Of a stretch of DNA of 64,000 nucleotides, positions 4,330 through 56,900 are shown piece by piece. The DNA comes from Pristiophorus japonicus (lineage: Eukaryota). Within the stretch, counting starts at the first letter, position 1. Each line of letters starts with the position of its first letter. Made by a program: the position numbers and the translations under genes. The stretch is from NCBI RefSeq assembly GCF_044704955.1, contig NC_091981.1, forward strand, positions 48,298,001 to 48,362,000, in the 5' to 3' direction. Below the pieces are notes generated by a model that was not told the origin of the DNA, searched no databases, and saw only the letters and a program-made list of their open reading frames with translations.

Positions 4330-4485
4330 GCCACTCATTGATTGGAACTGGGGTAAATAAACAGAGAAAAAAGAATGGAATTTCTAAAAGGTGTGCAGGA
4401 CTCCTTTCTCAAACAAGGGAAGAGGCATTGTTAGATCCAGTTATGAGTAACGAAACAGGTAGATGACTTAAATGTGGGTGAGCAC
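4330..4485 (+). mobile_element. Old CR1 endonuclease-region fragment, left half; continues at 15244-15420
   Basis: Translates to TREEALLDPVMSNETG..LNVGEH and resumes FGSN..NMI after 15248. Compare PTRELAILDWVMCNEKG...GPLGKSDHNMV in the CR1 ORF at 25113. Confidence 0.6.
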
Positions 4486-4534
4486 TGTAATCTATGCACC
4501 TGTGAGTAAGCTCATAGGTTTTGTAGAGCTGTTG

Positions 4535-5806
4535 CTGCCTGCCTCTCTTCCGCGGTTACATCTGAGCCAGGGTGTCCCTGGAGATGGAGCACGCGGTGTC
4601 CACCGGTACGCTGTACGCTCGCAGCCTTCCGCGAGAGGTGGGCGCCGGAGGGACTGGAGTGCATCATCACCCCCGGCAACCAAATTTTAATTTGATTTTA
4701 TATGTTTTAAAGTTTAATTTGTTTTATTGCCGATTTTAGTGTCCCCCCAGTCAGGGGGCACTTACATAATTTGCCTCTCGGTGCCCTAAAAAAAACCAGA
4801 AAAAAACTCAAAAACCCCCCAAAAAAACAAAACAAAAATAAAAGGGCACCTGAAAAGTGTTTGGAGTGTCCCCCACCTTTAATAAGGGGGCACTTGATTT
4901 ATTTTTGTTTTGCAAAAGAGTTGCGGAGCTGTTGCTGCCTGCCTCTCTTCCGCGGTTACATCCGAGCCAGGGTGTCCCTGGAGATGGAGCATGTGGTGTC
5001 CACTGGTACGCTCGCGGCCTTCCGCGAGAGGTAGGCACCGGAGGGACTGGAGTGCATCATCACCCCCGGCAACCAAATTTTAATTTGATGTTTGTCTAAA
5101 GTTTAATTTGTTTATTGTGCCGGTTTTAGTATGTGTCGCCCCCCCCCCCTCCGCCCCAGCTTTTAAGCTTTTAGCCAGGGGATACTTGTATAATTTGTGT
5201 TTTTACTGCCCGAAAAAAAAGGGGCACTTGAAAAGTTTTTGGAGTGTGCCCCCCCCCCTTTGATCAGGGGGCACTTGATTATTAGTTTACAACTAAAATA
5301 GTTGTAGAGCTGTTGACTCGTGATCTTTGGGCACCCTGTGCGGAGGGGAGCGGGCAGGTCGGAAGGCCTCCTCGTAGGACTGCTCCTGGGCATGGTCAAG
5401 GGGGCCATCCGCCGGTCCAGGCAGTGGGCGGTCGAGGGGGTCGTTCAGCCCGACTGCCTGCCTCTCTTCCATAGTTACATCCGAGCCAGGGTGTCTCTGG
5501 AGATGGAGCACGCGGTGTCCACCGGTACGCTCGCGGCCTTCAGCGAGAGGTGGGCGTCGGAGGGACTGGAGTGCATCATCACCTCCAGCAATCAAATTTT
5601 AATTTGATTTTATGTCTAAATGTTAATTTGTTTAATTTGCCAGATTTAGTGCGCCCCCCGCCCTTTTAGCTAGGGGGCACTTGTATAATTTGTGTTTTTG
5701 TGCCCTCAAAAAAAAACAAGGGGGCACTTGTTTGAAAGTGTTTGGTATGCCCCCCCCCCCTTTAATCAGGGGGCACTTGATTTAACTGTTTTTCTACAAA
5801 AATAGT
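4535..5806 (+). mobile_element. Three tandem 5'-truncated Tx1 copies (4535-4921, 4935-5302, 5316-5806)
   Basis: Each has the ORF2 C-terminus (CLPLFRGYIRARVSLEMEHAVSTGTLAAFRERWAPEGLECIITP) plus 3' UTR, and each is separated by TGTAGAGCTGTTG or a variant. Confidence 0.9.
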
Positions 5807-6712
5807 TGTAGAGCTGTTGTGGGCGTGGCTTATTCACTTGGAGCTGTGACTGTGTGAAGGAAGGAGCTCCTGCAAACTGTGTACCCAGGAGAGGAGGAAG
5901 GGGTCAACTGTTATCAACACTTTGAGGGAGAAGAGGAGAGCAAGAGCTATAACACCACTGCTACCAAAGAGTTGGAGAGAGAGGAAAAGGAAAAAAAAGC
6001 TGAAACACCTTAAAAAGCAACATCATCTGTATGTAAGGAGGGAGAGCCATTATTCAACAATCTACAGGTGGGTGTATTTTGGTGCACTTTCCAAAGAGAC
6101 TTTGTTTTATCGGTGGGGGGAGGAAAGAAGATTAGTCAGAAGGCCGGAATAACGTGGGGGTGTGTGGATGTAAGTGTGTGTGGGGTTCTTGCCACCAACT
6201 AGGCCCCACACACCACTAGAAGCATAGCTCCCCATTGCCTGGCCCGGGATAGCTGGAGTTGCCTGGGTGAAGACTTGTTTTCCATCAATTAAACATTGTT
6301 GAGACTGGTGGAGGACTGTGCCTGGGTAGTTCCAGCTATCCCGGGTGAAGACATCTTCTCCCCCTGCCAGAGGACCATTCATAAGGACTTTATCTTGCCA
6401 TCAGGAGAGTGCATCCTTGCAAGCACCCACCCAACTTTGTGAGGAGTGACCTGCTTTTGCAGCCTTCCTCTTTCCCACCCCCCCCCCCTTCGCTCTCTGA
6501 CTGTCCCCTCTCTCCGAGAGGTCCCTTTCTCCTTTTTCTTAAAAAAATTAATTTAAAAAGAATTGAGTGGAGGGAAAAAGGCTCTTCCCCAATTGTTAAG
6601 CAGGGGAGAGGTGTGCCTCATTAAGAGCTACCTCTGCTCAAATAAAGGAGGCCAATTAAGATCTTTAGGCCTGAGACATTGGGGTGAGTGTTGCCCTTAA
6701 AGGGACCCTGAC

Positions 6713-7430
6713 ATGACGAGTCCATCTATGCCTGTGGCAGGGCCAGCGCAAACTTATGCGCGCATGGCGTCCACAGCCACGGCAACTTCTGCTGCTCCTG
6801 CTGTCCTGCCACTATTTAAATTACTAACTAAAAAGAATGGGGTCAAGAGCTACACTCACCCCAACATGAATATTGAGGAGTGCATGATGGCAATGGCTGG
6901 GGTAGTTGGCCCCTCGGCCATTGTTGCCGCCTCAAAAATGTATGGGAAGGCTGTGATCTTCCTGGGGCCGGAGCGGGCGGTGTCCTTGGCCCTTAGTAAG
7001 GGGCTCATGGTGGGTGGGACCTTCCTGCCGGTGGATCCCCTCGAGGCCACCACACAGAGACTCATTATTTCAAATGCCCCACCCTTTGTTCCCGGTGATC
7101 TCCTCCTCCCCCACCTTCGTCAACTGGGAGAGGTGAGGTCAGGGATAAATCCAATACCGCTCGGCTTCAGGAAGGCCAGCATCCATCATTTGTTCTCCTT
7201 CCGGCATCAGCTTTTCATTCAGCTGGCATGGGAAGAGGTAACAGAGGGAGCGTTCAAAGTGGTCCACAAGGGGACAGCCTACTGCTTATTCTGGATGTCG
7301 AACGGTGGGCGGTGCCAAGCCTGTAAGGAGGTGGGGCACATTCGCAAGAACTGCCCCGCCTCCAAGGCCGCTAAAACAGCCAAAGCGACCAAGGCTGGTG
7401 CCGCCGCCACTCCTCCCCCTGCCAGAGAGG
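6713..7430 (+). pseudogene. Tx1 ORF1 (zinc knuckle CQACKEVGHIRKNC), fused by an internal deletion to ORF2
   Basis: ORF 6713-7723 shows Tx1 ORF1-like motifs (AASKMYGKAVIFL, IISNAPPFVP) and then runs directly into endonuclease motifs (CLQETH). Confidence 0.8.
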
Positions 7431-10400
7431 CACATCGTAGATTTAACAATTTTTCGCTCTTGCAGGAGGGGAAATATGCGGTGTGCTGCCTGCAAGAAAC
7501 CCACACCGTTCCAGGAGACGAATCCATGTGGCTCCTGGAATGGCAAGGAGAGGTGGGGTGGCTATCTTGTAGGTCCCACATTTTCAGCTGGAGGTCTTGG
7601 GGGTCAAGGAACCTGTGTCACAGTTCGCCTGGGGGATGTGCCACTCCATTTAGTGAATGTGTACGCCCCCCCAGCCCGGCGCACACCAAGTGCGCTTCTT
7701 CGAAGAAGTGTCCACTCTTCTAGGCTTTGTCGACATCGGCGACTGCATTGTCCTCGGGGAGGATTTTAACTGCACCCTTGAGGCGAGGGACCGCTCTGGT
7801 GCCCCGCAGAGCATGACGATGATGGAGATGTTGAGGGACCTGGTTGGGTCCTTCGACTTGGTGGACGTCTGGCGAAATCTCCATCCCGACTCCAGCACCT
7901 GGAAGAGAATGGTCCAGAATCGACCGCCTTTGCGTGTCTCGGGCATACGTCTCCTGCGTTCCGGCGGCTTCCATGCGGCCGGCGCCGTGCTCGGGCCACC
8001 ACCTGTGTGGGCGGAACTCGCTTTGCTCCGCGCGCTGATGGGGTCTGTGTACTGGCATTTTAACAACCTGCTGCTGGAGGACGAACGGTTCCAGGGTTCA
8101 TTCCATCGGTTCTGATCCGACTGGCGAAGGAAGCAGGGGGGCTTCCCCTCCTTGAGGTTATGGTGGGACATGGGCAAGGCTCATGTCCATCTCTTCTGTC
8201 AAGACAATGCAAAGGGGTCGACCAAGAGGCGGGAGGCCAGGGTGGGGTGCCTGGAGAAGGAGGTGCTCGACCTGGAATCCCGTCTCGGTCAAGTCGTCAA
8301 GGACCCGGCCTTGCGGACGGTGTACGAAGCGAAGAAGGCCGCGCTGAAGGACCTGCAGCTTGTCGGGTCACGAGGCGCGTTCGTGAGGTCGCGGATCCGG
8401 TTCCTCCGGGACCTGGACAGCTGGAAAAAAGACAGGAGGTCCGTAAGCAGCTCTTGACGCTGCTGGCCGATGACGGATTTCTGGTCTCGGACCGGAGGGC
8501 ATCAGCAACAGGGCCCGAGACTATTACAGGGCTCTGTTCTCTCCAGATCCATCCAGCGAGGAAGCGTATAGAGTTTTGAGGGAGGACTTGCCGAAGGTTG
8601 GCCCGGAGGGCGCCGAAAATCTGGATGCTCCGCTAAGCCTGGTGGAGCTGACTGGTGCCCTCGACCAGCTCTCAAGGAGAAAGTCCCTGGGGCTGGACGG
8701 GCTGATTGTGGAGTTCCACAGGGCGTTCTGAGACGCGCGGGTCCTGGGGAAAAATCTGGCAACCGGGGAGATGCCCCTCTCTTGGCGCAGGGCAGTCATC
8801 ACCCTGCTGCCTAAGAAGGGCAATCTTTGTCTACTTAAGAACTGGTGTACGGTCTCCCTCCTCAGCACAGATTACAACATTTTTGCCAGGGTGATGTCTG
8901 CTCGCCTTGGCGCGTGCTGGACCAATCCCGACCAGTCCTACACGGTCCCGGGCCCGACAATCCACGATGACATCCATCTGGTCCGGGACCTGGTCCACCA
9001 TTCCCAGAGGACTGGTCTGTCGGTCGCCTTCCTTTCCCGAGACCAGGAGAAGGCGTTCGACAGGGTGGATTACGAGTATCTGTTCGGAATTCTGTGCGCT
9101 TTCGAGTTCAGAACGCATTTCGTCGCCCAGATCCGACTTTTGTATGCCGCCACGGAGTGTCTGATTAAGGTTAACGAGTCTTTGACGGCCCCCCTTCACT
9201 TTGGGAGAGGGATGCGCCAGCAATGCCCCATGTCCGGCCAGTTATATGCAATATGTGTGGAGCCTTTCCTGCGCCTCTTGCGGAAGAGGTTGATGGGACT
9301 GGCTCTGCAAGGGCCGGGCGTGGAGGTCACCCTCTCGGCTTACACCAATGACATGCTCCTCATGGTCGAGGATCCCATTGAACTGCGGAGGATGCGTGAG
9401 TGCCAGAAGATTTACTCGGCCACTTCCTCCGCCAGGATCAACTGGGAGAAATGTCCTGGACTCCTGGTGGGTCAGTGGCGGGTGGACTCCCTGCTGGAGG
9501 AGCTCAGGCCTTTGGCCTGGAGCACAACCCATCTCCTCTATCTGTGAGTCTACCTTAGCCCCGACGAGGAAGCCTGGCCGGCGAACTGGCAAGAGCTGGA
9601 GGCCAAGGTCGGCGCTCGCCTAGGGCACTGGACAGGACTGCTCCGAGTGCTGTCCTACAGGGGCCAGGCACTAGTCATAACCAGCTGGTGGCCGCTATGC
9701 TGTGGTATCAGTTGGTCAGTTTGACCCCTCCCCCTGCGTTTGTCGCCAAGATACAGAAGAAGCTGGTCAACTTCTTCTGGAACAACAGGAAGCACTGGGT
9801 CTCTACTGCGGTTCTGAGTCTCCCGCTTAGGGAGAGCGATCAGGCATTGCTGTGCATCAGCACCCAGCTAGCGACTTTCCGTCTTCAGACCCTGCAGAGA
9901 TACGTTGAGCCCCTCCTAGCTGGTGTGGGCTGGCAACGCATTTCTTCCACCAGCAGTACTGCCTCACCTACAACACACAGCTCCTATTTGTGAGCCTGGG
10001 GGGCGTCAGGACCGCCGTGCAGGGGCTGCCTGTCTTTTACCAGGAACTCATCAGGGTCTGAACAGAGTCGCCACCAAGCACAGTTCTCCCCCGTCTGGAG
10101 TGGCGGCTGTCCTTCGGGAGCCACTACTTAAGAATCCGTACCTCCACGACCGTGATTTTAGGTAGCAGGCGGACGAGAGCGCTGTGGCTGGCAAGGTGAC
10201 CAGGGTCAGGGACCTGCTCGATGGTGGAGGAGCGGGCTGGATGGTGCCAGACGAGTTGCTAAAAACAGCGCTGGGCCCTGACTCCGTTAGATGTGTCGAG
10301 GAGGCTGAAGCACATGGGGAGATCCAGTCCGAACTGACCCCCGTCCGGACAGAATTCCTCATCGGCACCAACCCCCGAAACCTCCCTCGGGAGCTGGCGC

Positions 10401-11100
10401 CTCACAACTTGAGCCTCCTCCGGGAAATCTCCTCCGTGCCTTTCAGTTCTGCGTGGAGGGGATTCCTGTTCGGGCTGCTCTTGCACACTCTCCACATTGC
10501 CATCTTCGTCTGCCATCCGGACACGCCATGGCGCACCATCTTGCCATCCGGAGGAGGCGGGGGGCCCCAATGGAGTGCTCTCTATGCGGGAGTCCTCCCT
10601 CTATTTATTGGGGACTTGGCCTGGAGGGTGTTGCACGAAGCAGTCCCCTGCTATAAGTTTTTAAGTTGGTTCATGGGCTCCCAGGTCGCCTGTAATTTTT
10701 GCGGTCTAGGGGAGTCCATGTTCCATGTGTATATTGAGTGTGCGAGGTTGTAGCCCCTCTTCCAATATCTGAAGGGGCTGCTCCTCAAATTCAGGTTGCA
10801 CTTCAGTCCCACACTCCTGATCTTTGGGCACCCTGTGCGGAGGGGAGCGGGCAGGTCAGAATGCCTCCTTGTAGGACTGCTCCTGGGCATGGCCAAGGGC
10901 GCCATCACCCGTTTCAGGCAGCGGACGGTCTAGGGGGTTGTTCAGCCCGATTGCCTGCCTCTCTTCCGTGGTTACATCCGAGCCAGGGTATCCCTGGAGA
11001 TGGAGCATGCGGTGTCCACCGGTACGCTTGTGGCCTTCCGCGAGAGGTGGGCGCCGGAGGGACTGGAGTGCATCATCACCCCCCGGCAACTAAATTTTAA
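7431..11100 (+). pseudogene. Tx1 ORF2 (APE endonuclease plus RT), with multiple frameshifts and stops
   Basis: ORF fragments 7657-8115, 8152-8457, 8771-9547, 9688-9993 and 10184-10753. Confidence 0.88.
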
Positions 11101-11340
11101 TTTGACCATTTAATATTGAAAGTTTAATTTGTTTAAGTTTGTCGGTTTTAGTGCCCACCACCACCCCCCCCCCCTTTTAGCCAGGGGGCACTTGTATAAT
11201 TTGCGTTTTGGTGCCCTCAGAAAAAATAAAAATAAAAAATAAAAGGGGGCACTTGATTGAAGTTATTGGAGTGTGCCCCACCCCCCTTTTAACCAGGGGG
11301 CACTTGATTGTTTGCAACTAAAATAGTTGTTGAGCTGTTG

Positions 11341-11832
11341 AGCGGGCAGGTCGGAAGGTCTCCTCGTAGGGGGCCATCACCCGGTCCAGGCAGCGGGCGG
11401 TTGAGGGGGTCGTTCAGCCCGACTGCCTGCCTCTCTTCCGCCACGGTGTCCCTGGAGATGGAGCATGTGATGTCCACTGCTATGCTCGCGGCCTTCCATG
11501 AGAGGTGGGCACCGGAGGGGCTGGAGTGCATCATCACCCCCAGCAACCAACTTTTAATTTAAGTTTACTGTCAAAAGTTTATTTTGTTTAACGTGTCGGT
11601 TTTAGTGCTCCCCTTTAATCAGGGGCACTTGTTTATCTGCACGCAGTGTCTATCGGTGCACTCTTGGTCTTCCGCGAGAGGCGGGCACCGGAGGGAATGG
11701 AGTGCTTCATCACCCCTGGCAACCAAATTTTTATTTGATCTAAGTTTCCGTTAAAGTTGCATTTGGAAATGTGTAGGTTCTAGTGCCCTTGCCAAAAGGG
11801 GGCACTTGATTTAAAGTTAGAATTAAAATAGT
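11341..11832 (+). mobile_element. Two more 5'-truncated Tx1 3' ends (11341-~11638 and ~11639-11832)
   Basis: Same ORF2 C-terminus and 3' UTR hairpins, followed by TGTAGAGCTGTTG at 11833-11845. Confidence 0.85.
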
Positions 11833-11879
11833 TGTAGAGCTGTTGAATTGTGAGTGGCTTAGCCAGTCACATGATAATG

Positions 11880-14800
11880 AGAACATAAGAAATAGGAGTA
11901 GGTCATTTGGCTCCTAGAGCATGCTCCGCCATTTTATAAGATCATGGCTGATCTGATCTTGGGCTCAGCTCCGCTTCCCTACCTGCTCCCCATAACCCTT
12001 CACTCCCTTATCGTTCAAAAATATATTCAATGACTCAGTCTCCACAGCTCTCTGGGGATTTACCACCCCCTGAGAGAAGAAATTCCTCCTCATCACAGTT
12101 CGAAATGGGTGACCCCTTATTCTGAAACTATGTCCCCTAGTTCTAGATTCCCCCATGAGTGGAAACATCCTATCTGCATCTACCTTGTTGAGCCCCCTCA
12201 GTATCTTCTATGTTTCAATAAGATCAATTCTCATTCTTCTAATCTCCAATGAGTATAGGCCCAACCTGCTCAACCTTTCTTCATAAGTCAACCCCTTCAT
12301 CTCAGGAATCAACCTAGTGAACCTTGTCTGAACTGACTCCAATGAAAGTATACCCTTCCTTAAATAAGGAGACCAAAACTGTACGCAGTACTCTAGGTGT
12401 GGCCTCACCAATAGCCTGTACAGTTGTAGTAGAACTTCCCTGCTTTTATACTCCAGCCCCCTGCAATAAAGCCCAACATTCAATTTGCCTTCATGATTAC
12501 TTGCTATACCTGCACACTAACTTTTTGTGTTTCATGCACAAGGACCCCCAGGTCCCTCTGTACTGCAGCATTTTGTAATCTCACTCCATTTAAATAATAA
12601 TTTGCTTTTTTATTTTTCCTGCCAATGTGGTAATGTCATACTTTATCACATTATACTCCATCTGCCAAATGTTTGCCCACTCACTTAGCAGCTTCTTTGT
12701 GTCCTCCTCACAACTTGCTTTCCCACCTATCTTTGTATCATCAGCAAACTTGGCTATATTACACTCGGTCCCTTCATCTAAGTCATTAATATAGATTGTA
12801 AATAGTTGAGGCCCCAGTACCAATCCCTGCGGCACCCCACTAATTACCGTTTCCCAAGTGGAAAATGACCCATTTATCCTGACTCTCTGTTTTCTGTTAA
12901 TTAGCCAATCCTCTATCCATACTAATATATTACCCCCAACCCCGTGAGCTCTTTATCTTGTGCCCTAACTTTTTATGTGGCATCTTATCGAATGCCTTCT
13001 GAAAATCCAAATACACCACATCCACTAGTTCCCCTTATCCACCCTGCTCATTACATCCTCAAAGAACTCCAGCAAATTTGTCAAACATGATTTTCCTTTC
13101 ATAAAACCATGCTGACTCTGCTTGACAGCATTATGATTTTCCAAATGTCCTGCTATTGCTTCCTTAATAATGGACTCCAGCATTTTCTCAATGACAGATG
13201 TTAGGCTAACTGGTCCATAATTCCCTGCTTTCTGTCTCCCTCCTTTTTTAAAGAGGGGCATTACATTTACAGTTTTTCAATCCACTGGGACCTCTCTCGA
13301 CTCCAGGGAATTTTGGTAGATTGCAACCAATGCATCCACTATCTCTGCAGCCACTTCTTTTAAGACCCTAGGATGCAGGCCATCAGGTCCAGGGAACTTG
13401 TCCACCTTTACTACCATTATTTTACCGAGAACTTTGTCTTTAGTGTTAGTGATAGTGATTGTTTTAAGTTCCCCCCTCCCTATAGTCCCCTGATTATTTA
13501 TTATTGGGATGTTTTTAGTGTCTTCTAAAGTGAAGATTGATACCAAATATTTGTTCAAAGTCTCTGCCATTTCTCTGTTCCCCATTATTAATTCCCCAGT
13601 CTCATCCTCTAAAGGATCCTCTTCCTTTTTATATACCTGTAGAAGCTCTTATTATCTGCTTCTAGATTTCTTGCTAGTTTACTCTCATAATCCAACTTCT
13701 CTCTCTTTATTATTTTTTTAGTCATCCGTTGCTGGTTTAAAAACATTTCCCAATCCTCTGGCCTCCCACTAATCTTGGCAACATTGTATGCATTGTTTTC
13801 AATTTGATACCATTCTTTATTTTCTTAGTTAGCTACGAATGGTTCTCCCTTCTCTTAAAGTTTTTCCTTCTCACTGGAATATATTTTTGTTGAGAGCTAT
13901 GAAATATCTCCTTAAATATCTGCCACTGCTCATCAACCGTCTTACACTGCAATCTATTTACCCAGTCCACTTTAGCGAACTCTGCCTTCATATCTTTGTA
14001 GTCGCCTTTATTTAAGGACACTGAATTGGAGGGTGAGAAAGTTGGGTCTCAAACTAATTTGAACTTCAACCATGCTATGATCACTCTTTCCTAGAGGATC
14101 CTTTACTATGAGATCATTTATTAATCCTGTCTCATTACACAGTACCAGATCTAAGATAGCCTGCTCCCTGGTTGGTTGCACAATGTACTGTTCAAGGAAA
14201 CCATCCAGAATAACTCTATGAACTCTTCCTCAAGGCTACCTTGGCCAATTTGATTTGTCCAATCAAATATTAAGATTAAAATCGCCCATGATTATTGCCG
14301 TATATTTCTTACAAGCCTCCATTGTTTCTTGATTCATACTCTGTCCAACATTGTGGCTACTGTTAGGGGGCCTATAGACTATGCCCACCAGTGACTTCTT
14401 CCCCTTCTTATTTCTGATCCCCACCCAAACTGATTCTACATCTTGATCTTCTGAGCCAATATCATTTCACTATTGCATTGATCTCATCTTTTATTAACAG
14501 AGCTACCCCACCTCCTTTTCCTTTCTGTCTATCCTTCCAAATTGTCAAATATCCCTAAATATTCAGTTCCCAGCCTTGGTCACCTGGCAACCACATGTCT
14601 GTAGTGGCTAACAGATCATACCCCTTTATATCTATTTGTGCTGTCAACTCATCTATCTTGTTATGAATGCTGTGTGCATTCAGATAAAGAGCTTTTAATG
14701 TTGTCTTTTTACCATTTTTCCCTGCTTTCTGTCCCTTCCTGTCACACTCTGGTTGTCATTTCCTCTATCACTACCCTGCTCTATTGCCTTCTCCTTTCTC

Positions 14801-15050
14801 TTTGACTTTTAAAATTTCTGCTCACCTGAACCCTCCCCCCACTATTTAGTTTAAAACCCTCTCTATAGCCCTAGTTATTCGATTCACTAGGACACTAGTG
14901 CCAGCACGGTTCAAGTGAAGCCCGTCCCAATGCAACAACAGGCGGGGCAGTGGGCGGGTCAATGCAACAACTCCCTCTTACCCCAGTACTGGTGCCAGCA
15001 CACCAGGAATCAAAACCCATTTCTCCCACACCAGACTTCGAGCCATGTGT
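11880..15050 (-). mobile_element. CR1 LINE, 5'-truncated and degenerate
   Basis: Minus-strand ORF pieces PQGLVLGPQLF, KFADDTK, QHGFMKGKSCLTNL and VRPHLEYCVQFWSP. 3' tail ...CCTATTTCTTATGTTC; approximate TSD TGATAATG/TGATGATG. Confidence 0.92.
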
Positions 15051-16079
15051 TGATGATGTTCACAAGACTCAATAAAACCCCAGCCAGTTGGGTTCAGGAG
15101 ATCCACGATGGTGGTTGTGAGCCTGGTGGATGAATTGGTAATGTGTAGTGTGATTGCTAAACCTTTGCAAATAAACCAACTAGTTCTTAAAAGCAATGTG
15201 TTGCTATGAATTCTTAAAGAACCCATGAAGCAAATACATTACAAACACTTTGGGAGTAATGAGCTTAATATGATATAGTTTACAGTCCAAATAGAAAGAG
15301 AAAAGGTTAGTATACAAACAAGGTCATCAGATTAAAATAGGGTAGATTTTAGACAGACCAAGAGTGAGCAAACAGCTAAAAAAGAAAGTTCTTTTATGTT
15401 CAAATCACAGAGGGATAGCCTGCATATTGTAAACTTATGAATGATATGTTAAATACAATGTGTAATTATCCATATAATTTGGAGTGAGATATGTGAGCAT
15501 CAAAAGGCAAGCTAATTTCGGCACTTCAGAAACCTTAAATGTTGGTAAGGTAAATTCCAATCCAATTCTCTGATGTATGCGTGTTAGAAGGGAGTCAGAT
15601 TTGTCTGATATTCTTTGACTAATATTAATATTAACTAATATTGGAATTTTATATACAATATTTCTTACGTAATTTACAGGATTTAAGGGCCGAAATTGAT
15701 GGACCGCACAATTCTCGGCGGTCTCGCGGTGGTCGGTCTATCTTCACCGCCCGGTACCGCTGGGGCGGAGTGCTGGCAACATTGGTCCGGATGATCCTGA
15801 GCGGTGCGTCAGCAGAGTGCGATGGACGGTCTGCTCCAGTGGTGCAGGGTAAGTTGTCTGGGACTTGGGACTCCTCGGGTCCTGAATTCTACGCACGCGC
15901 GCTCTTGCATCGACCGCCGTCCCCTGTCCCCCCCACCGCCGCTGAGAAGAGCAGTCCGGAGGCCAGAGACTGCCAACGTCGGGTCGCGGGTAAGTATAGA
16001 TTTTTAATTGTTTTGTGCAGCATTTTTTATTTATTTATAACACTTATATTGTTATTTATTTTTTAATTTTTGTTTTTCT

Positions 16080-17584
16080 GGGGGGGGGGGGGTGGAATAA
16101 ATCTCTGGGGGGGCGGGGATTAGATCTCTGGGTGAGAGGACTAGATCTCTGGGGGTGGGGGGGACTTAGATCTCTAGGGGGGGCGACTTAGATCTCTGGG
16201 GGGGGACTTAGATCTCTGGGGGAGGGACTTAGATCTCTGCGGGGAGGGGGATTAGATTGCTGGGGGGGGGATTAGATCTCTGCGGGGGGGGAATTAGATC
16301 TCTGCGGGGGGGATTAGATCGCTGGGGGGGGATCAGATCTCTGCGGTGGGGGATCAGATCTCTGCGGTGGGGGATCAGATCTCTGCAGGGGGGATTAGAT
16401 CTCTGCGGGGGGGGGATTAGATCTCTGCGGGGGGGGAAATTAGATCTCTGCGGGGGGGATTAGATCGCTGGGGGGGGATCAGATCTCTGCGGGTGGGAAT
16501 TAGATCTCTGCGGTGGGGGATCAGATCAATGTCGTGGGGTTCAGATCTCTGCGGGGGGGGATTAGGTCTCTACGGGGGGGACTTAGATCTCTGCAGGGGG
16601 GGAATTAGATCTCGGGGGGGGACAGATCTCTGCGGGGGGGGATTAGATCGCTGGGGGGGGGATTAGATCTCTGTGGTGTGGGATTAGATCTATGCGGTGG
16701 GGGATTAGATCTCTGCGGGGGGGGGAATTAGATCTTTGCGGGGGGGGAATAGATCGCTGGGGGGGGGATCAGATCTCTGCGGTGGGGATCAGATCTCTGC
16801 GGGGGGGATTAGATCTCTGTGGTGTGGGATTAGATCTATGCGGTGGGGGATTAGATCTCTGCGGGGGGGGGGAATTAGATCTTTGCGGGGGGGGAATAGA
16901 TCGCTGGGGGGGGGATCAGATCTCTGCGGTGGGGATCAGATCTCTGCGGGGGGGATTAGATCTCTGTGGTGTGGGATTAGATCTCTGCGGTGGGGGATTA
17001 GATCTCTGCGGGGGGGGGATTAGATCTTTGCGGGGGGGGATTAGATCACTGGGGGGGGAATCAGATCTCTGCGGTGGGGGATCAGATCTCTGCGGGGGGA
17101 TTAGATCTCTGCGGGGGGGAATTAGATCTCTGCGGGGGGGATTAGATCGCTGGGGGGGGATTAGATCTCTGCGGTGGGGGATCAGATCTATGCGGCGGGG
17201 GATCAGATCTCTGCGGGGGGGGGATTAGATCTCTGCGGTGGGGGATCAGATCTCTGCGGGGGGGGGGTTAGGTCTCTACGGGGGGGGACTTAGATCTCTA
17301 CGGGGGGGGAATTAGATCTCTGCGGGGGGGAATTAGATCTCTGCGGGGGGGAAATTAGATCTCTGCGGGGGGGAATTAGATCTCTGCGGGGGGGGATTAG
17401 ATCTCTGTGGGGGGGGAATTAGATCTCGGGGGGAGTGGGGGGGGGAAGGGATTAGATCTCTGGGTGCAAGGATTAGGACTAGATCTCTGGGGGTGGGATT
17501 AGATCTCCAGGGGGGATTATATCTCTGGAGGGCGGGGGGGGGGGGGGTTGAAGGACTAGATTGCGGGGAGGGGGGGAGGACTAT
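16080..17584 (+). repeat. G-rich minisatellite, unit about 20 bp (GGGGGGATTAGATCTCTGC); continues at 24159-24420
   Basis: Dozens of directly visible tandem units with variable G-run length. Confidence 0.95.
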
Positions 17585-23710: not shown

Positions 23711-24877
23711 TGTAAAAAAAAAATTTCCCCTCAAAACTCGGTGGGAACAACGTTATTTGTGCTCTGAATTCTTTTTGCTGCTGGAAAATCTCCCTCCTAC
23801 CTCCCAAAACAGCCAAACAAGCACACACCACACCCATACACGCTTTCAGTTCCTCTCTGCTCCCTCTTTCTCTCTCTCTCCTCTTCTGCGCATGTAATGA
23901 TGACCCCTGACCTCCTGAAAGACGGGAAGCGACCGTTGTCATGCCGTTGCTATGGATGCCGACACTTTATGGCAGAAGGTGAAAAATTTAACGCTACCAC
24001 CCATTTGAGATCATTCGCGGTAACGCCTATTTTATAAAATGGAAAGTTGGGGTTTTGAAAATGGCGATAATCCGGCAATCTCAAAACCCATATTTATTGC
24101 TACGCTGGAAATAACGCCCATTTTTGGCGAATCTGCACAAAAGTGGAAAGTCTAGCCCCAAATCTCTGTGGGGGGGAGGGGAGAGAAATCGATCGCCGGG
24201 GGGAGGAATAGATCGCTGGGGTGGGATTAGATCTCCTGGGGGGGGGATTAGATCTCTGTGGGGGGAGGATGAGATCTCTGGGGTGGGATTATATCGCATG
24301 GGGATTAGACATCCGGGGGGATTAGATCTCTGGGGGTGGGTGGGAGGTATAGATCACTGGAGGGGAGGACTATATCTCTGAGGGTGAGGGGAGAGAAATA
24401 GATCGCTGGGGGGAGGAACATTGTAGATTACATACTGCCGACATACCATCGGCATGAAATCACCTTTTTTCAGACGGTGTGCAGCTCAGGTGGTATGTCA
24501 GCGGTATACTACCAATGTCGGACTTTTGGGCGGTCTGTAGGGTGCTCCATGTGGGTGAACGGTATGCATACCGCCCGGTGGTATGTCACTGATGAATTTC
24601 CCGCCGGGCGGTATGTGAGCGGTATGTAGGTATTTTATGATCAATTTCGCGATTTTGGGCAGTATGTCGGCGGTTCGCGGGCGGTATGTCCACCAATTTC
24701 GGCCCTTAATGTTCATCAATTTTCCAGTATCCTTAAAAATACAGTACGATATAGTTGGTTATTCTCTAAAGCCAGTTCACCACAGCAAGGGGGATTATTT
24801 TTGTTAATTTTCTGAGATTTGATGGTGTATAAATTAGGCAAATCTGAAACTTGCAGTTGCTTTACAGTTATGTTTAA

Positions 24878-25085
24878 CAACAATTTGCATTTTTATAGCG
24901 CCTTTAACATAGGAAAATGTCCCAAGGCGCTTCAAAGGAACGTAATCAGACAAAAGTTGACACTGAGCTAAAGATAGCTGAGCTGAGATATTAGAAGGAC
25001 TAAAAGCATGGTCAGAGGTAGGTTTTAAGGAGGGTTTTAAAGGAGGAGAGAGATGTGGAGAGGTGGAGAGATTTAAGGAGGGAAG
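24878..25085 (-). mobile_element. L2-type LINE 3' fragment, split; resumes at ~31017-31135 and 32182-32370
   Basis: TTGCATTT.TATAGCGCCTTT tail. GGAGGGAA|TTCCAGAG junction rejoins, as seen uninterrupted at 63700-63730. Confidence 0.65.
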
Positions 25086-25112
25086 GATAGGCAGAGAGGA
25101 AAAGGAGGCGGG

Positions 25113-27320
25113 GTGGCATTGCTGGTTAAAGAGGAAATTAATGCAATAGTAAGGAGGGACATTAGCCTGGATGATGTGGAATCGGTATGGGTGGAGCTAC
25201 GGAATACCAAAGGGCAGAAAACGCTAGTGGGAGTTGTGTACAGACCACCAAACAGTAGTAGTGAGGTTGGGGACAGCATCAAACAAGAAATAAGGGATGT
25301 GTGCAATAAAGGTACAGCAGTTATCATGGGCGACTTTAATCTACATATTGATTGGGCTAACCAAACTGGTAGCAATGCGGTGGAGGAGGATTTCCTGGAG
25401 TGTATTAGGGATGGTTTTCTAGACCAATATGTTGAGGAACCAACTAGAGAGCTGGCCATCTTAGACTGGGTGATGTGTAATGAGAAGGGACTAATTAGCA
25501 ATCTTGTTGTGCAAGGCCCCTTGGGGAAGAGTGACCATAATATGGTAGAATTCTTTATTAAGATGGAGAGTGACACAGTTAATTCGGAAACTAGGGTCCT
25601 GAACTTAAGGAAAGGGAACTTCAATGGTATGAAGCGTGAATTGGCTAGAATAGACTGGCAAATGATACTTAAAGGGTTGATGGTGGATAAACAATGGCAA
25701 GCATTTAAAGATGACATGGATGAACTTCAGCAATTGTACATCCTTGTCTGGAATAAAAATAAAACGGGGAAGGTGGCTCAATCGTGGCTAACAAGGAAAA
25801 TTAAGGATAGTGTTAAAACCAAGGAAGAGGCATATAAATTGGCCAGAAAAAGCAGCAAACCTGAGGACTGGGAAAAATGTAGAATTCAACAGAGGAGGAC
25901 TAAGAGTTTAATTAAGAGGGGGAAAATAGAGTATGAGAGGGAGCTTGCAGGGAACATAAAAACTGACTGCAAAAGCTTGTATAAATATGTGAAGAGAAAA
26001 AGATTAGTGAAGACAAACATAGGTCCCTTGCAGTCGGATTCAGGTGAATTTATAATGGGAAACAAAGAAATGGCAGACCAATTGAACAAATACTTCAGTT
26101 CTGTCTTCACAAGGAAAGACACAGATGTACTAGGGGACAGTGGGTCTAGTGAGAAGGAGGAACTGAAGGATATCATTATTAGGCAGGAAATTGTGTTAGG
26201 GAAATTGATGGGATTGAAGGCCGATAAATCCCCGGGGTCTGATAGTCTGTATCCCAGAGTACTTAAGGAAGTGGCGCTAGAAATAGTGGATGCATTGGTG
26301 ATCATTCTCCAAAAGTCTATCAACTCGGGATCAGTTCCTATGGACTGGAGGGTAGCTAATGCAACACCACTTTTTAAAAAAGGAGGGAGAGAGAAAACAG
26401 GTAATTATAGACCGGTTAGCCTGACATCAGTAGTGGGGAAAATGTTGGAATCAATCATTAAGGATGAAATAGCAGCGCATTTGGAAAGCAGTGACAGGAT
26501 CGGACCAAGTCAGCATGGATTTATGAAAGGGAAATCATGTTTGACGAATCTTCTGGAATTTTTTGAGGATGTAACTAGCAGAGTGGACAAGGGAGAACCA
26601 GTGGATGTGGTGTATTTGGACTATCAAAAGGCTTTTGACAAGGTCCCGCATAAGAGATTAGTGTGCAAAATCAAAGCGCATGGTATTGGGGGTAATGTAC
26701 TAACGTGGATAGAGAATTGGTTGGCAGACAGGAAGCAAAGAGTCGGGATAAACGGGTCCTTTTCAGAATGGCAGGCAGTGACGAGTGGTGTGCCGCAGGG
26801 CTCAGTGCTGGGACCCCAGCTATTTACAATATACATTAACGATTTAGATGAAGGAATTGAGTGTAATATCTCCACGTTTGCAGATGACACTAAACTGGGT
26901 GGCGATGTGAGCTGTGAGGAGGATGCTAAGAGGCTGCAGGGTGACTTGGACAGGTTAGGTGAGTGGGCAAATGCATGGCAGATGCAGTGTAATGTAGATA
27001 AATGTGAGGTTATCCATTTTGGGGGCAAAAACACGAAGGCAGAATATTATCTGAATGGCGGCAGATTAGGAAAAGGGGAGGTGCAACGAGACCTGGGTGT
27101 CATGGTTCATCAGTCATTGAAAGTTGGCATACAGGTACAGCAGGCAGTGAAGAAGGAAAATGGTATATTGGCCTTCATAGCTAGGGGATTTGAGTATAGG
27201 AGCAGGGAGATCTTACTGCAGTTGTACAGGGCCTTAGTGAGGCCACACCTGGGATATTGTGTTCAGTTTTCGTCTCCTAATCTGAGGAAGGACATTCTTG
27301 CTATTGAGGGAGTGCAGTGA
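25113..27320 (+). pseudogene. CR1 ORF2 (APE endonuclease plus RT), N-terminally truncated with a premature stop
   Basis: VYRPP, MGDFN, SDHNMV, YRPVSLTS, AFDKVPH, GVPQGSVLGP and FADDTK motifs. Confidence 0.93.
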
Positions 27321-44301: not shown

Positions 44302-45835
44302 CTAATGTAGATGGAAAAAAAGAACGCATTCAAATGTTTGTTTATTAAGCTTAAACAGGTAGTTTAGTATGGTATTTCAAATATAGACAATGCTGACTAA
44401 AACTTTCAGCTGTTTTGAACAAATGCAACCGCTCTTGTAAAATTTCCTTCCCCTTCTTGCCAGTAATGTGAACCCCAACAATGGACTGGAAACTTCAGTC
44501 AGAAGCAAAGCGACAGCGATTGCCACTGACCTCAAAGAAAACAGCCAAGATCACAAGATCTCTGGTGAAAATTTTTAGCTTTCTCAACCTTAATTTCATC
44601 CCCAGGTGTACATTAGCAGTGATATCAAGGTATCCAACCAGCCAATCACACTGAAGAATCTCAGACAGCAAACCAGGAAATATAAAGCAATCAATTCACT
44701 CTTAAATTTTTTTTTTTTTTTAATACCTATTGATTTCATAATGGTCCAATTTGATATTACATAAATAAGTTAGTTTTTCAGGGCTAGGCCTGCAGTTCAG
44801 CAGTCAATATGCCATAAAATCCCCTGGTTATATCTATTCCAACAAGGCTCAACTTTTTAATGGGGCGATTAACAGTGATCAGAGTGGAAAGTTTGTACGC
44901 TCATGATTGTATGGATTTCTTGCCAAGGGGTGTTCCACAGTGCAGTCTGTGGCAGAGTAAGGAATGACTGACCACAACTTCAGGATTTCTGCATTTATCT
45001 GCTTATGCATCAAATCCTGAAGTTAGTCAGTTTCAGAAGGGTAATGACTGAACACCTACAGTTTCTCATTGGCCTGGATTTTGCACTGGTGGCAATGATT
45101 ATTATTGACAAGTACAATTCTGTTATTGCTTGACATCCAAAAATGCCCACTTCCCAGTCAGGGAAGGGGAAAGAACAGACGATTAAAATGAGCGCCAATT
45201 GCCAATACATTACTTAATATTTTAACAAGAACAAAAACTTGTATCGATATAGAACCTTTCATAGCTCAGGAAGTACTGCAGAGCCAATGTTTTGTAAGCA
45301 AATGGGTCAGCCAATTTGCATACAAGGCCCTCGAACCAAAAAAATTATAAAACCAGCTATGGTCGTGCTGATGCTTTACTTTAGATATCCTTACAGGAAC
45401 AGGCCATCCTGCCCAACTGGTCTATGCCAGCGGTTATGCTCCACACAAGCCTCCCCTCACCCTACCCACACTTTATTTCTTTCTGCCTCTGATGTACATC
45501 CAGCTTCCTTTAAAAACACAGCTATGCTATTTACCTCAACTGCTCCTTGTGGTAGTGTTCCACATTCTTACTACTTCCTGGGTAAAGAAGTTTCTCCTGA
45601 ATTCCCTATTGAATTTATTAATGACTATATTGGTTGGAGTTAGTTTAATTCTGGACACAGGTGGTGTTATAAAGTACACCGGTCACTGTGGCATTTTTCC
45701 GATTGGACAGAAGAAAGCAAAACCAAAGAGAAAACCAGCTTCAGCAGAGAAGCCAGACATCCATTTTAGCTTACACTGTCTGAAGTTTGTGATTAAAAAT
45801 GAACCTCCTGCTGTACTAAACCTTCCCAGAAGTAC

Positions 45836-46722
45836 CATAGAAACATAGAAAATAGGTGCAGGAGTAGGCCATTCGGCCCTTCTAGCCTGCACCGCCATTT
45901 AATGAGTTCATGGCTGAACATGCAACTTCAGTACCCCATTCCTGCTTTCTCGCCATACCCCTTGATCCCCCTAGTAGTAAGGACCTCATCTAACTCCTTT
46001 TTGAATATATTTAGTGAATTGGCCTCAACAACTTTCTGTGGTAGAGAATTCCACAGGTTCACCACTCTCTGGGTGAAGAGGTTCCTCCGCATCTCGGTCC
46101 TAAATGGCTTACCCCTTATCCTTAGACTGTGACCTCTGGTTCTGGACTTCCCCAACATTGGGAACATTCTTCCTGCATCTAACCTGTCTAACCCCGTCAG
46201 AATTTTAAATGTTTCTATGAGGTCCCCTCTCATTCTTCTGAACTCCAGTGAATACAAGCCCAGTTGATCCAGTCTTTCTTGATAGGTCAGTCCCGCCATC
46301 CCCGGGAATCAGTCTGGTGAACCTTCGCTGCACTCCCTCAATAGCAAGAATGTCCTTCCTCAGGTTAGGAGACCAAAACTGTACACAATACTCCAGGTGT
46401 GGCCTCACCAAGGCCCTGTACAACTGTAGCAACACCTCCCTGCCCTTGTACTCAAATCCCCTCGCTATGAAGGCCAACATGCCATTTGCTTTCTTAACCG
46501 CCTGCTGCACCTGCATGCCAACCTCCAATAACTGATGTACCATGACACCCAGGTCTCTTTGCACCTCCCCTTTTCCTAATCTGTCACCATTCAGATAATA
46601 GTCTGTCTCTCTGTTACCACCAAAGTGGATAACCTCACATTTATCCACATTATACTTCATCTGCCATGCATTTGCCCACTCACCTAACCTATCCAAGTCG
46701 CTCTGCAGCCTCACAGCATCCT
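45836..46722 (-). mobile_element. CR1 3' fragment in a GMNN intron
   Basis: ORFs 46205-46714 and 45928-46299 encode the CR1 RT C-terminus; (TTTCTATG)n tail. Confidence 0.92.
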
Positions 46723-52432: not shown

Positions 52433-53762
52433 ATGGCGGCCAACCGAGCGGCGAACCAGGGCGTCTGAAACACCATCCGAGTGATGGTGAAGAAAGTGGA
52501 AGGCCAGTCAACCATCAATCGGGTGAAGAAAATCCTGCTTGGAACATGTGGCATGAAAGTCGCCGACATCTTTGCCTTGCAGGACCTCCCGAAGAGAGGT
52601 TACTTCGATGTCACCTTCAGAACCGTCGCCCTCTGCCTGAAGTTCCTCAAGGGTTTGAAGGAGGCGAGTGAACCGCTGCGCTCAGTGCTAACTTGGGCGC
52701 CACTGTTCACCCTCCCGTCGCAGAGAACGCACTATCACAGTGCAGATGTACAACCCCCACATCCCGGTCATTGATGTGCTGACTTTCCTCGCCAGGTATG
52801 TCGGGGCAGGAAACAGCAGCGACGTGAAAGACTTGCACGGGATATGGACCAGCAAGCGCCAGATCCAAGTCACCATGAAGGTGGACGCCAGCGGAACCAT
52901 CCTGCACCCCTCCTCCAGCTTTGCCATTGGAGGAAGTCGGGGATACATGGTGTACGCTGGCCAACCCAACGTGTGCCGGACCTGCGGGAAGGCAGGCCAT
53001 GTGGCGGCAAGCTGCAAAACTCTCATCTGCCGAAACTGCAAGAACGAAGGCCACCAGACAAAGGACTGTAAGGAGACCAAGTGCTGCAACCTCTGTGGTC
53101 TGGCTGGGCACCTTTACAAAAACTGCCCCAAGTGCAACTTCAGCTATGCGCAGGCAGCAAAGAACATTGCACCAGAGGAGGAGGAAGCTGAGGAACACAG
53201 CGCTCCAGAGGGGAGCTACACCCTCCCCCCGACCAACGCCCCCGGGGACTCGGAACAAGTCGGCGAGGAAGAGAAGCCTGCTACGCCGAGCTGCGAGACA
53301 CCAGCAACCAGCAGCGAAGCTCTCCCCCAGCACACCGAGTCCAGCAACGAGGAGACAGCAGACGATGAAGCGGGATGGGAGACCGTCAAGAAAAAGGCCC
53401 GCAAGCGTAAGGAGAACAGGCGAGCAAGGGCCCGTGCAGAAACGACAGGGAAGAGGCGGCTAGCAACCTCGACAGACAGCAGCGGCGGCAGCTCGTCTGA
53501 TGAGGAAAGGCGAGAAAAAGCCTCTCACCACCGACACCAAAACAAGAGGCAATACGCCAACCCACAGCCACAGACGACCGGGAGCAGTGAAGCGACCAGC
53601 ACGGCCCTGCTCCAGGAACCCGTGAGCAGCGAAGTGCCCAGCGCACCCCACCTCCAGAATACCGGGAGCAACGCAGCGATCGAAGCACACCAGCTTGAGA
53701 CCGCTGCGACTGAGGAAAAGAAGGAACCACCAACACCAGGCGAGACAATGCAGAGGATATAA
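52433..53762 (+). pseudogene. Tx1 ORF1, ZCCHC3-like, three CCHC zinc knuckles
   Basis: YFDVTF, QMYNP, GIWTSKR; CRTCGKAGHVAASC, CRNCKNEGHQTKDC, CNLCGLAGHLYKNC. One early stop and one frameshift. Confidence 0.85.
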
Positions 53763-53924
53763 TGGACTTAATTACAGAACTGCAGCAGTCCCCTGGTCGA
53801 AACACCCCCACAGCAGAGGACGTCGACCACGCCAGCCCAGGTGTAGTAGACTTTGATAGTAATACCTATGCATGCTGGAACTGGTGAAGCGAAATCTTTG
53901 TAACTGTAAAAAAATAGCTTTAAA

Positions 53925-56900
53925 ATGGATTTAAAAATAGCTACTATTAACGTGTGTACCGTAAAATCTACTATGCGATGTGTTTCCACCTTGGCGTGCC
54001 TCACCAAGGTCAAAGCAAACCTGCTGTTCTTGCAGGAGTGCGGTCTGCCGCACTTCAGCAGTTACCAGCAGTGGTCACGGTGGTGGGACCATGGACCATC
54101 CATATGGTCAGGAGGCAACGACTGCCGGGTTTCCGGCCTAGGCATTCTGCTGCGGGGAGGCCACTTCACTATCACCGAAGTTAAGGAGGTGGTGGGCGGC
54201 CGCCTCCTCGTAGCAGATGTAATTTACAAAAATTCCCCTCTAAGGCTAATTAACGTGTATGCCTCGCCTCTCAGAAGCGAGCGGCTGGCCCTCTTCCAGC
54301 AGCTCCCACTGCTGCTGGCGACGTCCAGGCCGGTCATTCTGGGCGATGACTTCAACTGCATTATCGATGCGGCTGGACGATCCAGCAGAGCCGACAGCAA
54401 ACTGGACGCCACTCCTGATGGATGCGGTAAAAGACGCCAAGGGATATGGAAGCACAACGTGAAACTGTTGACTCCGGAAAACGTGGAGGAACTCAAGAGG
54501 GATTACAAAGGTTGGAGAATCGTAAAACCCCTCTGCGATTTCCCCCATGCCCTGGTGGGAAACAATCAAGACAAACATCAAGAGGTTCTTCATCCTCAAA
54601 GGTGTTCAGGAGGCGAGAGGGAGACAGAGGGAATTGTCCCAACTCCAGAAGAGCATGCAAAACCTGCTCCTGTTGCAGTCGATGGGGGTCGATGTCGTGG
54701 AGGAACTCGAAGAGGTGAAGGGCCAGCAAGCCTCGCTCTTTGCCTCAGAGTCCTCCAAAATCACTTTCCGCTCCAGAGTCCGCTCCGTCGAGCAGGATGA
54801 GACGTGTTCGAGCTTCTTCTTCCAAAAGGTACACGGGGAGCTCTGTGATCACCAGCCTAAAGGAAGAAGACGGTTCTGTGATGTTTTCGCAGCCTGACAT
54901 GCTGAGGATCAGCAAATCCTTCTATGCCAGGCTGTATGACGTCAAACCCACAGACCGCGCGGCCTCCCAGTCGTTCCTGTCGTTGATCATGGAGGTCCTA
55001 AACGACAGTGAGCGGGAGAGTCTGGATCACCCTTTAACTCTGTTCGAGATGACAAAGGCCGTCCGGTCCCTTGCGACGAGTAAAACTCCCGGAAGCGACG
55101 GCTTACCGGTCGCGTTGTATTTGGCTCTGTGGGACTGGATGGGCCCAGACCTGCTGGAAGTGTACGAGGGCATGCTTCTGGCTGGCAGTATGTCAGAATC
55201 AATGAGGAAAGGCATCATCACCCTCATCTACAAGCAGAAGGGGGAGAGGGAGGAAATCAAAAACTGGTGGCCCATTTCGCTGCTCAATGTGGACTACAAG
55301 ATCCTGTCAAAGGTCATCGCCAACAGGGTTAAAAGTCTGCTCTTGAGCTGGTGATTCACCCGGACCAGACCTGCGCTGTCCCCGGCAAGAAGATTTCTGA
55401 TAGCCTGGCACTACTCAGGGATACGATCGCCTACGTGCGGGACAGTGGGGTGGACAACTGCTTAATCAGCTTAGACCAGGAGAAGGCCTTTGACAGGATA
55501 TCGCACACGTACCTGATGGACATGCTCTCCAAAATGGGGTTTGGGGAGGGTATCCGCAATTGGATCCAACTGCTCTACAGAGACATCTGTAGCGCAGTTC
55601 TAATCAACGGGTGGGAAACTGAAAGCTTTCCGATCAGATCTGGAGTCAGGCAAGGTTGTCCTCTCTCGTCTCTCTTGTTTGTGTGTTGTGTCGAGCCCTT
55701 TGCCGGGTCCGTCAGAAAGGATGCGGGCATTAGAGGGGTGACTATCCCAGGCAGCAGAGGCGCTCAGGTCAAGACCTCCCTGTACGTGGACGACGTGGCC
55801 ATCTTTTGCTCGATCCGCAGTCGGTCCGCAGATTGCTCACAATCTGCGACCAGTTTGAACTGGCCTCGGGAGCGAAGGTCAATCGCAGCAAAAGCGAGGC
55901 CATGTTCTTTGGCAACTGGGCCGACCGATCCTTTATTCCCTTCACCGTTAAGCCAGATTACCTGAAGTTGTTGGGAATATGGTTCGGAGCGGACGGGGCG
56001 TGCACCAAAAACTGGGAAGAGCGTATCGCCAAAGTGAAGCAAAAACTGAGATGGTGGAAGCTGCGCTTCCTCTCCATGGCAGGAAAGAACCTGGTCATCA
56101 GGAGTGAGGTGCTCTCGGGGTTGCTACACGTGGCACAGGTCTGGCCCATCTCTCGCTCCTGTGCCGCGGCAGTCACCCGGGCCGTCTTCCACTTTGTCTG
56201 GAGGTCCAAAATGGAACGTGTCCGCAGAGACACAATGTACAAATCTCTGGACAGTGGAGGAAAGGATGTTCTGGACGTGGCCCTCATCCTGATGGCCACC
56301 TTTGTGTGCGGCTGCATCAAGCTGTGCACAGACCCCCAGTACGCAAACACCAAGTGTCACTACGTGCTGAGGTTCTACCTGTCCCCGGTATTGCGAAGGA
56401 TAGGCCTGGCCATGCTGCCGTGAAACGGCCCCACCAGCTGGACCATGCCTGTCCACCTGTCCTTCGTGGAAAAGTTTTTCACAAAAAACCCCTTTGACCA
56501 CAAAGCCATAAAACAGTGGTCAGCACATAACGTCCTGGATGCCCTACGAAAGAAGGAGAGGATGGACCCTGTCGGGTGGTTCCCTGAGCGGACTGTCGAA
56601 CTCATTTGGCAGAACGTCTCATCGCCAGAGCTTTCACACAAGCACCAAGACGTAGCTTGGTTGGCGGTGAGGAGGGCCTTACCTGTCAGAGCGTTCATGC
56701 ACAGCCGACGTCTCAGCAACACGGCACGGCGCCCCCGAGTCGGCTGCGGGGCGGACGAGATTGTCACCCATCTCCTTCAGGATTGCGCCTTCGCAAGGCA
56801 GGTTTGGAAAGAGATGCAATGGTTGCTCCCAAGCAGCTCCGTAACACAAGACTCTGTGCTCTACGGGCTGTTCCCAGGAACACACACCGAGACAGACATC

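Follow-up and report, generated by a model that had tools for sequence, protein, structure and literature searches.

The window analysed here is a 64,000-nucleotide stretch of the genome of Pristiophorus japonicus (NCBI RefSeq assembly GCF_044704955.1, contig NC_091981.1, positions 48,298,001 to 48,362,000 of the forward strand). It contains a stack of six copies of a Tx1 non-LTR retrotransposon inside a solitary long terminal repeat (LTR) of Gypsy type. Coordinates are those of the window, and all parts of the stack and its host lie on the + strand. The host solo LTR spans 4486-15243 and carries its own 5-bp target duplication (AGCAC on the left at 4481-4485, AACAC on the right at 15244-15248); two interruptions divide it, the Tx1 stack and a more recent 3.2-kb block of repeats. 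Its 5' arm (4486-4521, LTR positions 1-35 by blastn to a natural empty LTR) contains a palindrome with a 9-bp stem that ends just before the insertion site (fold, z about -2.2). Beyond the stack the LTR continues at 11846-11875, to LTR position ~78, gives way to ~3.2 kb of other, unrelated repeats (11876-15052), and is completed at 15053-15243 (LTR positions 74-273, ending ...TACA).

The stack is punctuated by a 13-bp sequence, the 13-mer, at 4522-4534, 4922-4934 (2 mismatches), 5303-5315, 5807-5819, 11328-11340 (1 mismatch) and 11833-11845, the six positions at which a preliminary description had placed it. With up to two mismatches it occurs nine times in the window against 1.34 expected, and 0 of 100 shuffles get to nine. 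Copy 1 (4535-4921), presumably the newest, has its 5' end at element position 5132 and a long 3' untranslated region (UTR) of 226 nt; copy 2 (4935-5302) also starts at 5132 and has a different UTR of 214 nt; copy 3 (5316-5806) starts at element position 4994 and has a long UTR of 199 nt; copy 4 (5820-11327) is near full-length (5508 bp, UTR 222 nt). Copy 5 (11341 to ~11635) has lost its 3' end (UTR cut to 73 nt) and joins copy 6 (~11636-11832) without a 13-mer. Copy 6 is of the older, short-UTR type (94 nt) and would be the first insertion. The duplication at 4522 is the junction that retains the upstream LTR sequence and would be the one re-used. The head-to-tail arrangement described earlier is borne out for six pieces on the same strand, but the intervals bounded by 13-mers number five, copy 5 running into copy 6. 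Five of the six copies end in AAAA(T/G)AGT before the 13-mer, as had been reported. The further statement that truncation points and 3' UTRs differ between copies holds for the UTRs (63% identity between copies 1 and 2, against a background median of 64%) but not for the start that these two copies share, the most telling detail of the stack.

The element shows the hallmarks of the Tx1 family: 5' truncation, a fixed 3' end and a target-site duplication. Most of the top genome matches to 5820-6320 begin at 5820, which marks this start of copy 4 as the true 5' end of the family. Open reading frame 1 (ORF1) of copy 4 begins at an ATG at 6713 and encodes a zinc knuckle (zf-CCHC, E 0.002, below cutoff). 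Its ORF2 is broken into an endonuclease remnant (7436-8418), a reverse transcriptase (RT) part (8492-9906; RVT_1, E 8e-22) and a C-terminal zf-RVT region (10109-11083; E 0.003, below cutoff), with a stop near 11106. In pieces it aligns by tblastn to residues 18-1291 of Tx1L ORF2; the broken endonuclease was not detected in a Pfam scan of copy 4. The RT piece is 57% identical to YTX2_XENLA, the Tx1L ORF2 (E 7e-93), and groups at 100/99 with Xenopus Tx1L and with ray, sturgeon and turtle sequences, the ray being nearest, in a tree whose relatives come only from the search that gave the YTX2_XENLA match, with no L1 or other-clade references except one distant long interspersed nuclear element (LINE) of the window. 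Judged by its sequence, the stacked element is a Tx1 clade non-LTR retrotransposon of the Tx1L lineage. Its 3' UTR occurs in a short (~95 nt) and a long (~200-245 nt) type, and folds no better than shuffles (z -1.3). The distant LINE lies at ~52700-57500: it has endonuclease and RT parts, is broken, shows 36% RT identity to Tx1L and falls outside the Tx1L clade.

The 13-mer corresponds to position ~35-47 of a ~274-bp Gypsy-type LTR. This LTR has TG..CA ends, and of 34 complete empty copies 25 have 5-bp flanks that agree with at most one mismatch (by eye). A subset of copies continues into a common internal region after a primer-binding-like start, and some have two LTRs. At locus L121 the internal region holds a gag-like ORF and an RT tail followed by the integrase domains Integrase_H2C2 (E 2e-11) and rve (E 2e-13), in Gypsy order; its RNase H segment was recognised by eye only. 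The target host is accordingly classified, from predicted domains, as a Ty3/Gypsy LTR retrotransposon, the domain order being that of L121, which itself is without most of the RT. The common internal region, the two-LTR copies and the integrase rule out a miniature inverted-repeat DNA transposon as host. An RNA-gene target was likewise rejected, an Rfam scan of three empty sites giving one chance-level match only. The target is an LTR, and not the U2 gene, transfer RNA array, microsatellite or 5S gene that define the Keno, Dewa/Kibi, Koshi and Mutsu families.

Some further features of the host LTR family deserve mention. The internal region of L121 (1487-4876) has no protease and lacks most of the RT, gag running directly into the RT tail; it may represent a non-autonomous family. 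At L038 (G000:C36:21446952-21450177) three empty LTRs stand in tandem; one ~140-bp spacer recurs between them, and each LTR carries a variant target site. At L114 a Tx1 3' fragment lies soon after the primer-binding-like start of the host internal region, a possible second site.

The association of the 13-mer with the element extends through the 5.9-Gb genome. DNA searches scored the 40 best candidates only. The 13-mer follows 21 of the 30 best 3'-end matches (20 of 29 without the query), seven of the remaining nine flanks starting with TG, and it precedes 24 of the 30 best 5'-end matches (by eye), 10 times after the LTR arm and 14 times after another copy. Both fractions exceed the share of flanks in one sequence (>20%) by which target specificity is recognised in PMC4494074. 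Exact patterns count 1033 empty sites, 2417 filled 3' junctions with LTR downstream, and 6456 junctions of element 3' end and 13-mer in all. Off-target copies have their own 11-14-nt duplications starting with TGTA, and the 13-mer is therefore not the element's tail. It is the family's target-site duplication at the Gypsy LTR. The earlier proposal of a sequence-specific family is in this way upheld, and both of the outcomes that it had named as fatal, random downstream flanks and a 13-mer belonging to the element rather than to empty sites, are contradicted by these counts.

Occupancy of the LTR depends on how it is counted: exact empty and filled patterns give 70%, 5' junctions give about 52%, and among 30 LTRs found by their 3' arm 13 are filled, 12 empty and 5 other. 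About half is the fair figure. A sample of 60 filled LTRs, taken by order of position on contig 1, comprises 34 with a single copy, 14 with two, 4 with three, 2 with four and 6 with at least five, so that 26 hold more than one. The tail of array sizes is longer than Poisson (six with five or more copies against at most 0.7), which could come from age differences between LTRs. The stack of the window belongs to the top tenth of arrays and is not unique. Among single junctions, L156 and L322 carry 13-nt inserts of the element's last bases only, each with a full 13-bp duplication, and at L131 and L154 the duplications run on beyond the 13-mer for 40-90 nt of LTR, which would fit top-strand cuts made far downstream of the customary position.

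A variant of the site with G instead of T as its first base accounts for 533 exact 5' junctions against 3145 with T. The 5' junctions put the filled share of G sites at about 17%: 59 of 100 are not exactly empty (scored by eye), and 10 of 35 sampled from these are filled. For T sites the share is about 52%, with 74 of 100 not exactly empty (by eye) and 14 of 20 sampled ones filled. The G variant lowers site use about threefold. The 3' junctions of G sites number 293 empty and 12 filled. An 'immune' G LTR is mostly artefactual, since the usual 3' junction of a filled G site carries T: a T stands at a 3' junction in six of eight filled sites with G as the first base of the 5' duplication, and one 3' junction has an extra TGT. 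The element RNA can supply one or more initial bases of the 13-mer at 3' junctions. The G variant is a possible escape variant; G LTRs are not clearly younger (p=0.09) and form no single clade in the LTR tree.

The copies of an array have separate RNA sources. In a tree of 99 3' ends, whose bootstrap is not fully settled, the six window copies scatter and need six changes, and a single clade, which the preliminary description had listed as a refutation, is rejected by the approximately unbiased (AU) test (p-AU 1.9e-9). A small number of LTR elements could in principle have amplified with Tx1 pieces already inside, and the similar age of LTR and Tx1 copies and the presence of filled LTRs in two-LTR elements would fit such hitchhiking. 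In a tree of 92 LTRs, however, filled and empty copies are intermixed (29 changes against a shuffled mean of 30.9), which argues against it; truncation points vary between loci, and the two-LTR copy L122 combines a filled LTR with an empty one. The sample contains no clade in which filled LTRs carry identical inserts, and hitchhiking is extremely improbable.

Arrays also have a polarity. In all 29 mixed pairs within arrays the short-UTR copy lies downstream. The short-UTR class is the more diverged (84.3% within-class identity against 89.7% for long-UTR copies; p 5e-7 for nearest-neighbour identity). Because the diverged short type is always downstream, arrays grew at the 5' junction, the one that keeps the upstream sequence of the LTR.

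The 5' ends behave differently from the RNA sources. Element units shorter than 60 nt, longer than 6 kb or with unmapped heads were excluded, and the identity tests covered 104 of 113. Of 51 pairs of adjacent copies, 34 have starts no more than 3 nt apart, as against 76 of 6121 pairs across loci. In 60 loci chosen by position, 22 of 31 neighbour pairs share a start, where 10000 permutations give a mean of 0.8 and a maximum of 6. Stacking with shared starts is found at an off-target site (L132) too. If 5' junctions were fully independent, shared starts would have to come from RNA truncation hotspots or from microhomology to the 13-mer. Some starts do recur across loci (the 76 pairs above), and such pairs have a small excess of shared variants in their first 10 nt (18 of 98, expected 9.9) and none past that point. 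Hotspots of this kind amount to 1.2% sharing across loci against 67% between neighbours, and the permutation maximum is far from the observed 22. They also leave unexplained the variants that neighbours alone share out to 60-100 nt. Full independence of the 5' junctions is highly improbable as an account of the arrays; it is refuted for pairs with shared starts and describes the other third of junctions.

These neighbour-specific variants reveal the composition of same-start copies. Minor variants of a neighbour recur in the copy upstream: within 60 nt of the start at 70 of 179 sites (expected 19.7), and between 60 and 100 nt at 29 of 121 (expected 17.1); beyond 500 nt the count is 38 of 253 (expected 27.8). 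In 11 pairs with a long-UTR copy upstream of a short-UTR one, sites that follow the neighbour number 27 of 49 in the head (expected 5.5), 12 of 53 at 60-120 nt (expected 4.0) and 19 of 265 in the body (expected 24.5). Typing heads as long- or short-UTR class by log-likelihood gave no information. UTR identity between same-start neighbours equals the background (0.63 and 0.63), with 3 of 34 pairs above the background maximum, and same-start neighbours are for this reason not duplicates. A same-start newcomer is a chimera, with a short head derived from its neighbour and the remainder from a different source element. The preliminary description had read the stack as repeated independent target-primed reverse transcription (TPRT) into a regenerated site; this is right for the RNA sources, which are separate, and does not extend to the 5' junction, which is usually taken from the neighbour.

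The same observations bear on local tandem duplication, in which one insertion is multiplied by unequal exchange or slippage between the 13-bp repeats and its products then diverge. Two thirds of neighbours share their 5' ends, A-B-A-B patterns occur at L130, L154 and L188, and the three pairs with near-identical UTRs look like products of such a process. Yet the UTRs of same-start neighbours can be of different length classes and are no more alike than those of unrelated copies, variant sharing ends after ~100 nt, the polarity is strict (29 of 29), and the window's six copies do not form one clade. Tandem duplication is refuted as the main route and, as a general explanation, very unlikely; it stands for about a tenth of pairs.

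The reading preferred here is that the six-copy Tx1 stack arose in the solo Gypsy LTR by repeated TPRT with addition on the 5' side, the 5' end of a newcomer often being fixed by pairing with the resident copy; we regard this as probable, though well short of certain. In the proposed sequence of events, the family first inserts at LTR position ~35 and duplicates 13 bp, as the junctions display. By analogy with Tx1L and R1 biochemistry, the apurinic/apyrimidinic endonuclease (APE) would recognise the upstream LTR and the 13-mer together and nick the bottom strand at the 13-mer's left edge. The 3' end of the RNA may extend a few bases into the target (UGU/UGUA) and pair with the nicked primer; the T at six of eight G-site 3' junctions, the one extra TGT and the TG with which seven of nine off-target 3' flanks begin support such read-through pairing. 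After an insertion, the 5' junction alone retains both upstream LTR and 13-mer, so newcomers land there while the oldest copy stays at the 3' side, as the order and age of copies show. Finally, once past the 13-mer, the complementary DNA (cDNA) would probably anneal to the homologous head of the resident and prime the second strand there. The expected product is a chimera that inherits about 10-100 nt of the neighbour, with the very same truncation point, and takes all remaining sequence from another source. Such priming on a resident head would extend the priming by 1-5-nt microhomologies that is known from R1 and R2. A full-length cDNA could use the same pairing through the likeness of its 5' end to the LTR just past the site, 5820-5832 matching 11849-11861 at 11 of 13 bases.

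A more general proposition follows the same lines: in APE-type LINEs, 5' truncation would be set by the first pairing between cDNA and target past the nick rather than by the RT falling off, with a resident copy acting as a trap from which two thirds of newcomers inherit the start and a 10-100-nt tract. The case for it and the case against it are about evenly balanced.

The same chimeras might be made by host repair. The cDNA would invade the resident and a cellular polymerase would extend it to the nick by synthesis-dependent annealing, with no second-strand cut by the element; or the 3' part of a duplicate would later undergo ectopic gene conversion. Such repair explains the A-B-A-B arrays, because invasion of the second copy would duplicate everything between, and also the excess of large arrays (at least five copies in 6 of 60). 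Invasion at random points and late conversion predict tracts across the whole neighbour, though, whereas most end within ~100 nt, and late conversion gives no reason for the 29 of 29 polarity. Host repair is on the whole unlikely; its short-tract form and resident-head priming would leave the same traces and appear inseparable by sequence data.

Several points weigh against the preferred reading. The samples from the DNA searches, which score the 40 best candidates, lean to well-preserved copies, and about 30% of sampled 3' ends are off target. In 17 of 51 adjacent pairs, including most junctions of the window, there is no common 5' end. A test of first against last copy for age inside arrays was not significant (14 of 22, p=0.14). 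Past 100 nt, shared variants still show a weak excess (about 1.3-fold), and 3 of 34 same-start pairs have the appearance of true duplicates; some recombination is therefore at work as well. With pairwise identities of 84-90% the copies are old, and the window's ORF2 is broken; the nicking, the read-through pairing and the resident-head priming proposed above accordingly rest on pattern and analogy.

Comparison with known systems separates what is familiar from what is less so. The closest relative is Tx1L of Xenopus laevis, which has two ORFs, APE and RT, a sequence-specific endonuclease and another transposon as its target (PMC4494074, PMC1950540), and with which the shark family shares 57% RT identity and a clade at 100/99. 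The target of Tx1L is Tx1D, a non-autonomous piggyBac DNA transposon (PMC4494074), whereas that of the shark family is a Gypsy LTR with a 13-bp duplication. Among crocodilians, the Tx1 families Tx1-Mar, Tx1-8_Crp and Tx1-4_AMi prefer other transposons, Tx1-8_Crp and Tx1-4_AMi choosing LTR retrotransposons, and tandem SINEU-3 copies that sandwich a target-site duplication are interpreted as sequential insertions (Kojima 2015, PMC4494074). The crocodilian Tx1 families belong to a Keno-related group in the tree of that paper, unlike the shark RT, which groups with Tx1L, and its accessible text makes no mention of shared truncation points.

R1 arrays in Drosophila 28S ribosomal DNA are the nearest parallel for stacking. 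R1 is APE-type and site-specific, a 14-bp target-site duplication stands between copies, and newcomers insert into the duplication at the 5' end of the resident, the same polarity as in the shark; 3' read-through pairs with the target, and the second strand is primed by microhomology of 1-5 nt (Stage and Eickbush 2009, PMC2718515). R1 differs in that its target, ribosomal DNA, is under concerted evolution and its microhomologies are with the target gene; a neighbour's truncation point with a 10-100-nt tract is not described in the accessible text on R1 (PMC2718515).

Transposable element dimers can arise by double insertion: the duplication preserves the target, so that site-preferring elements stack, and distinct 5' truncations mark double insertion, as in 6 of 10 jockey dimers (McGurk and Barbash, 10.1101/158386). 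Double insertions in the shark mostly share their truncation, and a criterion of distinct truncations would miscall them as duplications. MoTeR arrays at Magnaporthe telomeres have head-to-tail truncated copies with identical truncation positions as well, there ascribed to D-loop or break-induced copying of whole units (10.1101/845669). The shark arrays differ from these in that their 3' parts derive from different source elements. In cultured cells, L1 cDNA has been reported to join a nearby L1 copy into chimeras. Tx1 targeting of transposons, including LTR elements, and 5'-side stacking are already published; the inherited truncation point is under-described. In the literature searched, with Repbase and most subscription journals outside the search, this Tx1 family, its LTR target and inherited truncation points are not described.

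A Gypsy LTR serves a Tx1L-lineage family as its safe harbour; of several thousand copies about half are filled, and filling probably cripples the LTR. Completion of LINE integration has been described as very poorly understood (PMC6895275). Together with their polarity and age order, the arrays give a testable rule for 5' truncation: a homologous head lying directly beyond the nick would capture the cDNA and fix the junction within ~100 nt. Identical truncation points in tandem copies are no proof of duplication. The rule is also relevant to the design of clean 5' junctions in site-specific retrotransposon gene insertion. If a resident copy does act as a trap, filled sites may accept newcomers more readily than empty ones do, and stacking may become self-reinforcing; the thousands of arrays would amount to a natural map of how the second strand is primed, the step of LINE integration that is least understood.

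Elsewhere in the window, another LINE family, presumably CR1, is abundant. Its pieces lie in both orientations at 11876-15052, where one of them splits the host LTR and is later than the Tx1 stack, and at 25077-27320, 45800-46700 and 60700-61250; the segment at 25077-27320 holds a 747-amino-acid open frame with weak RT similarity. A G-rich minisatellite with units of ~21 nt (core GATCTCTG, >60 units) occupies 16086-17440 and 24196-24390.

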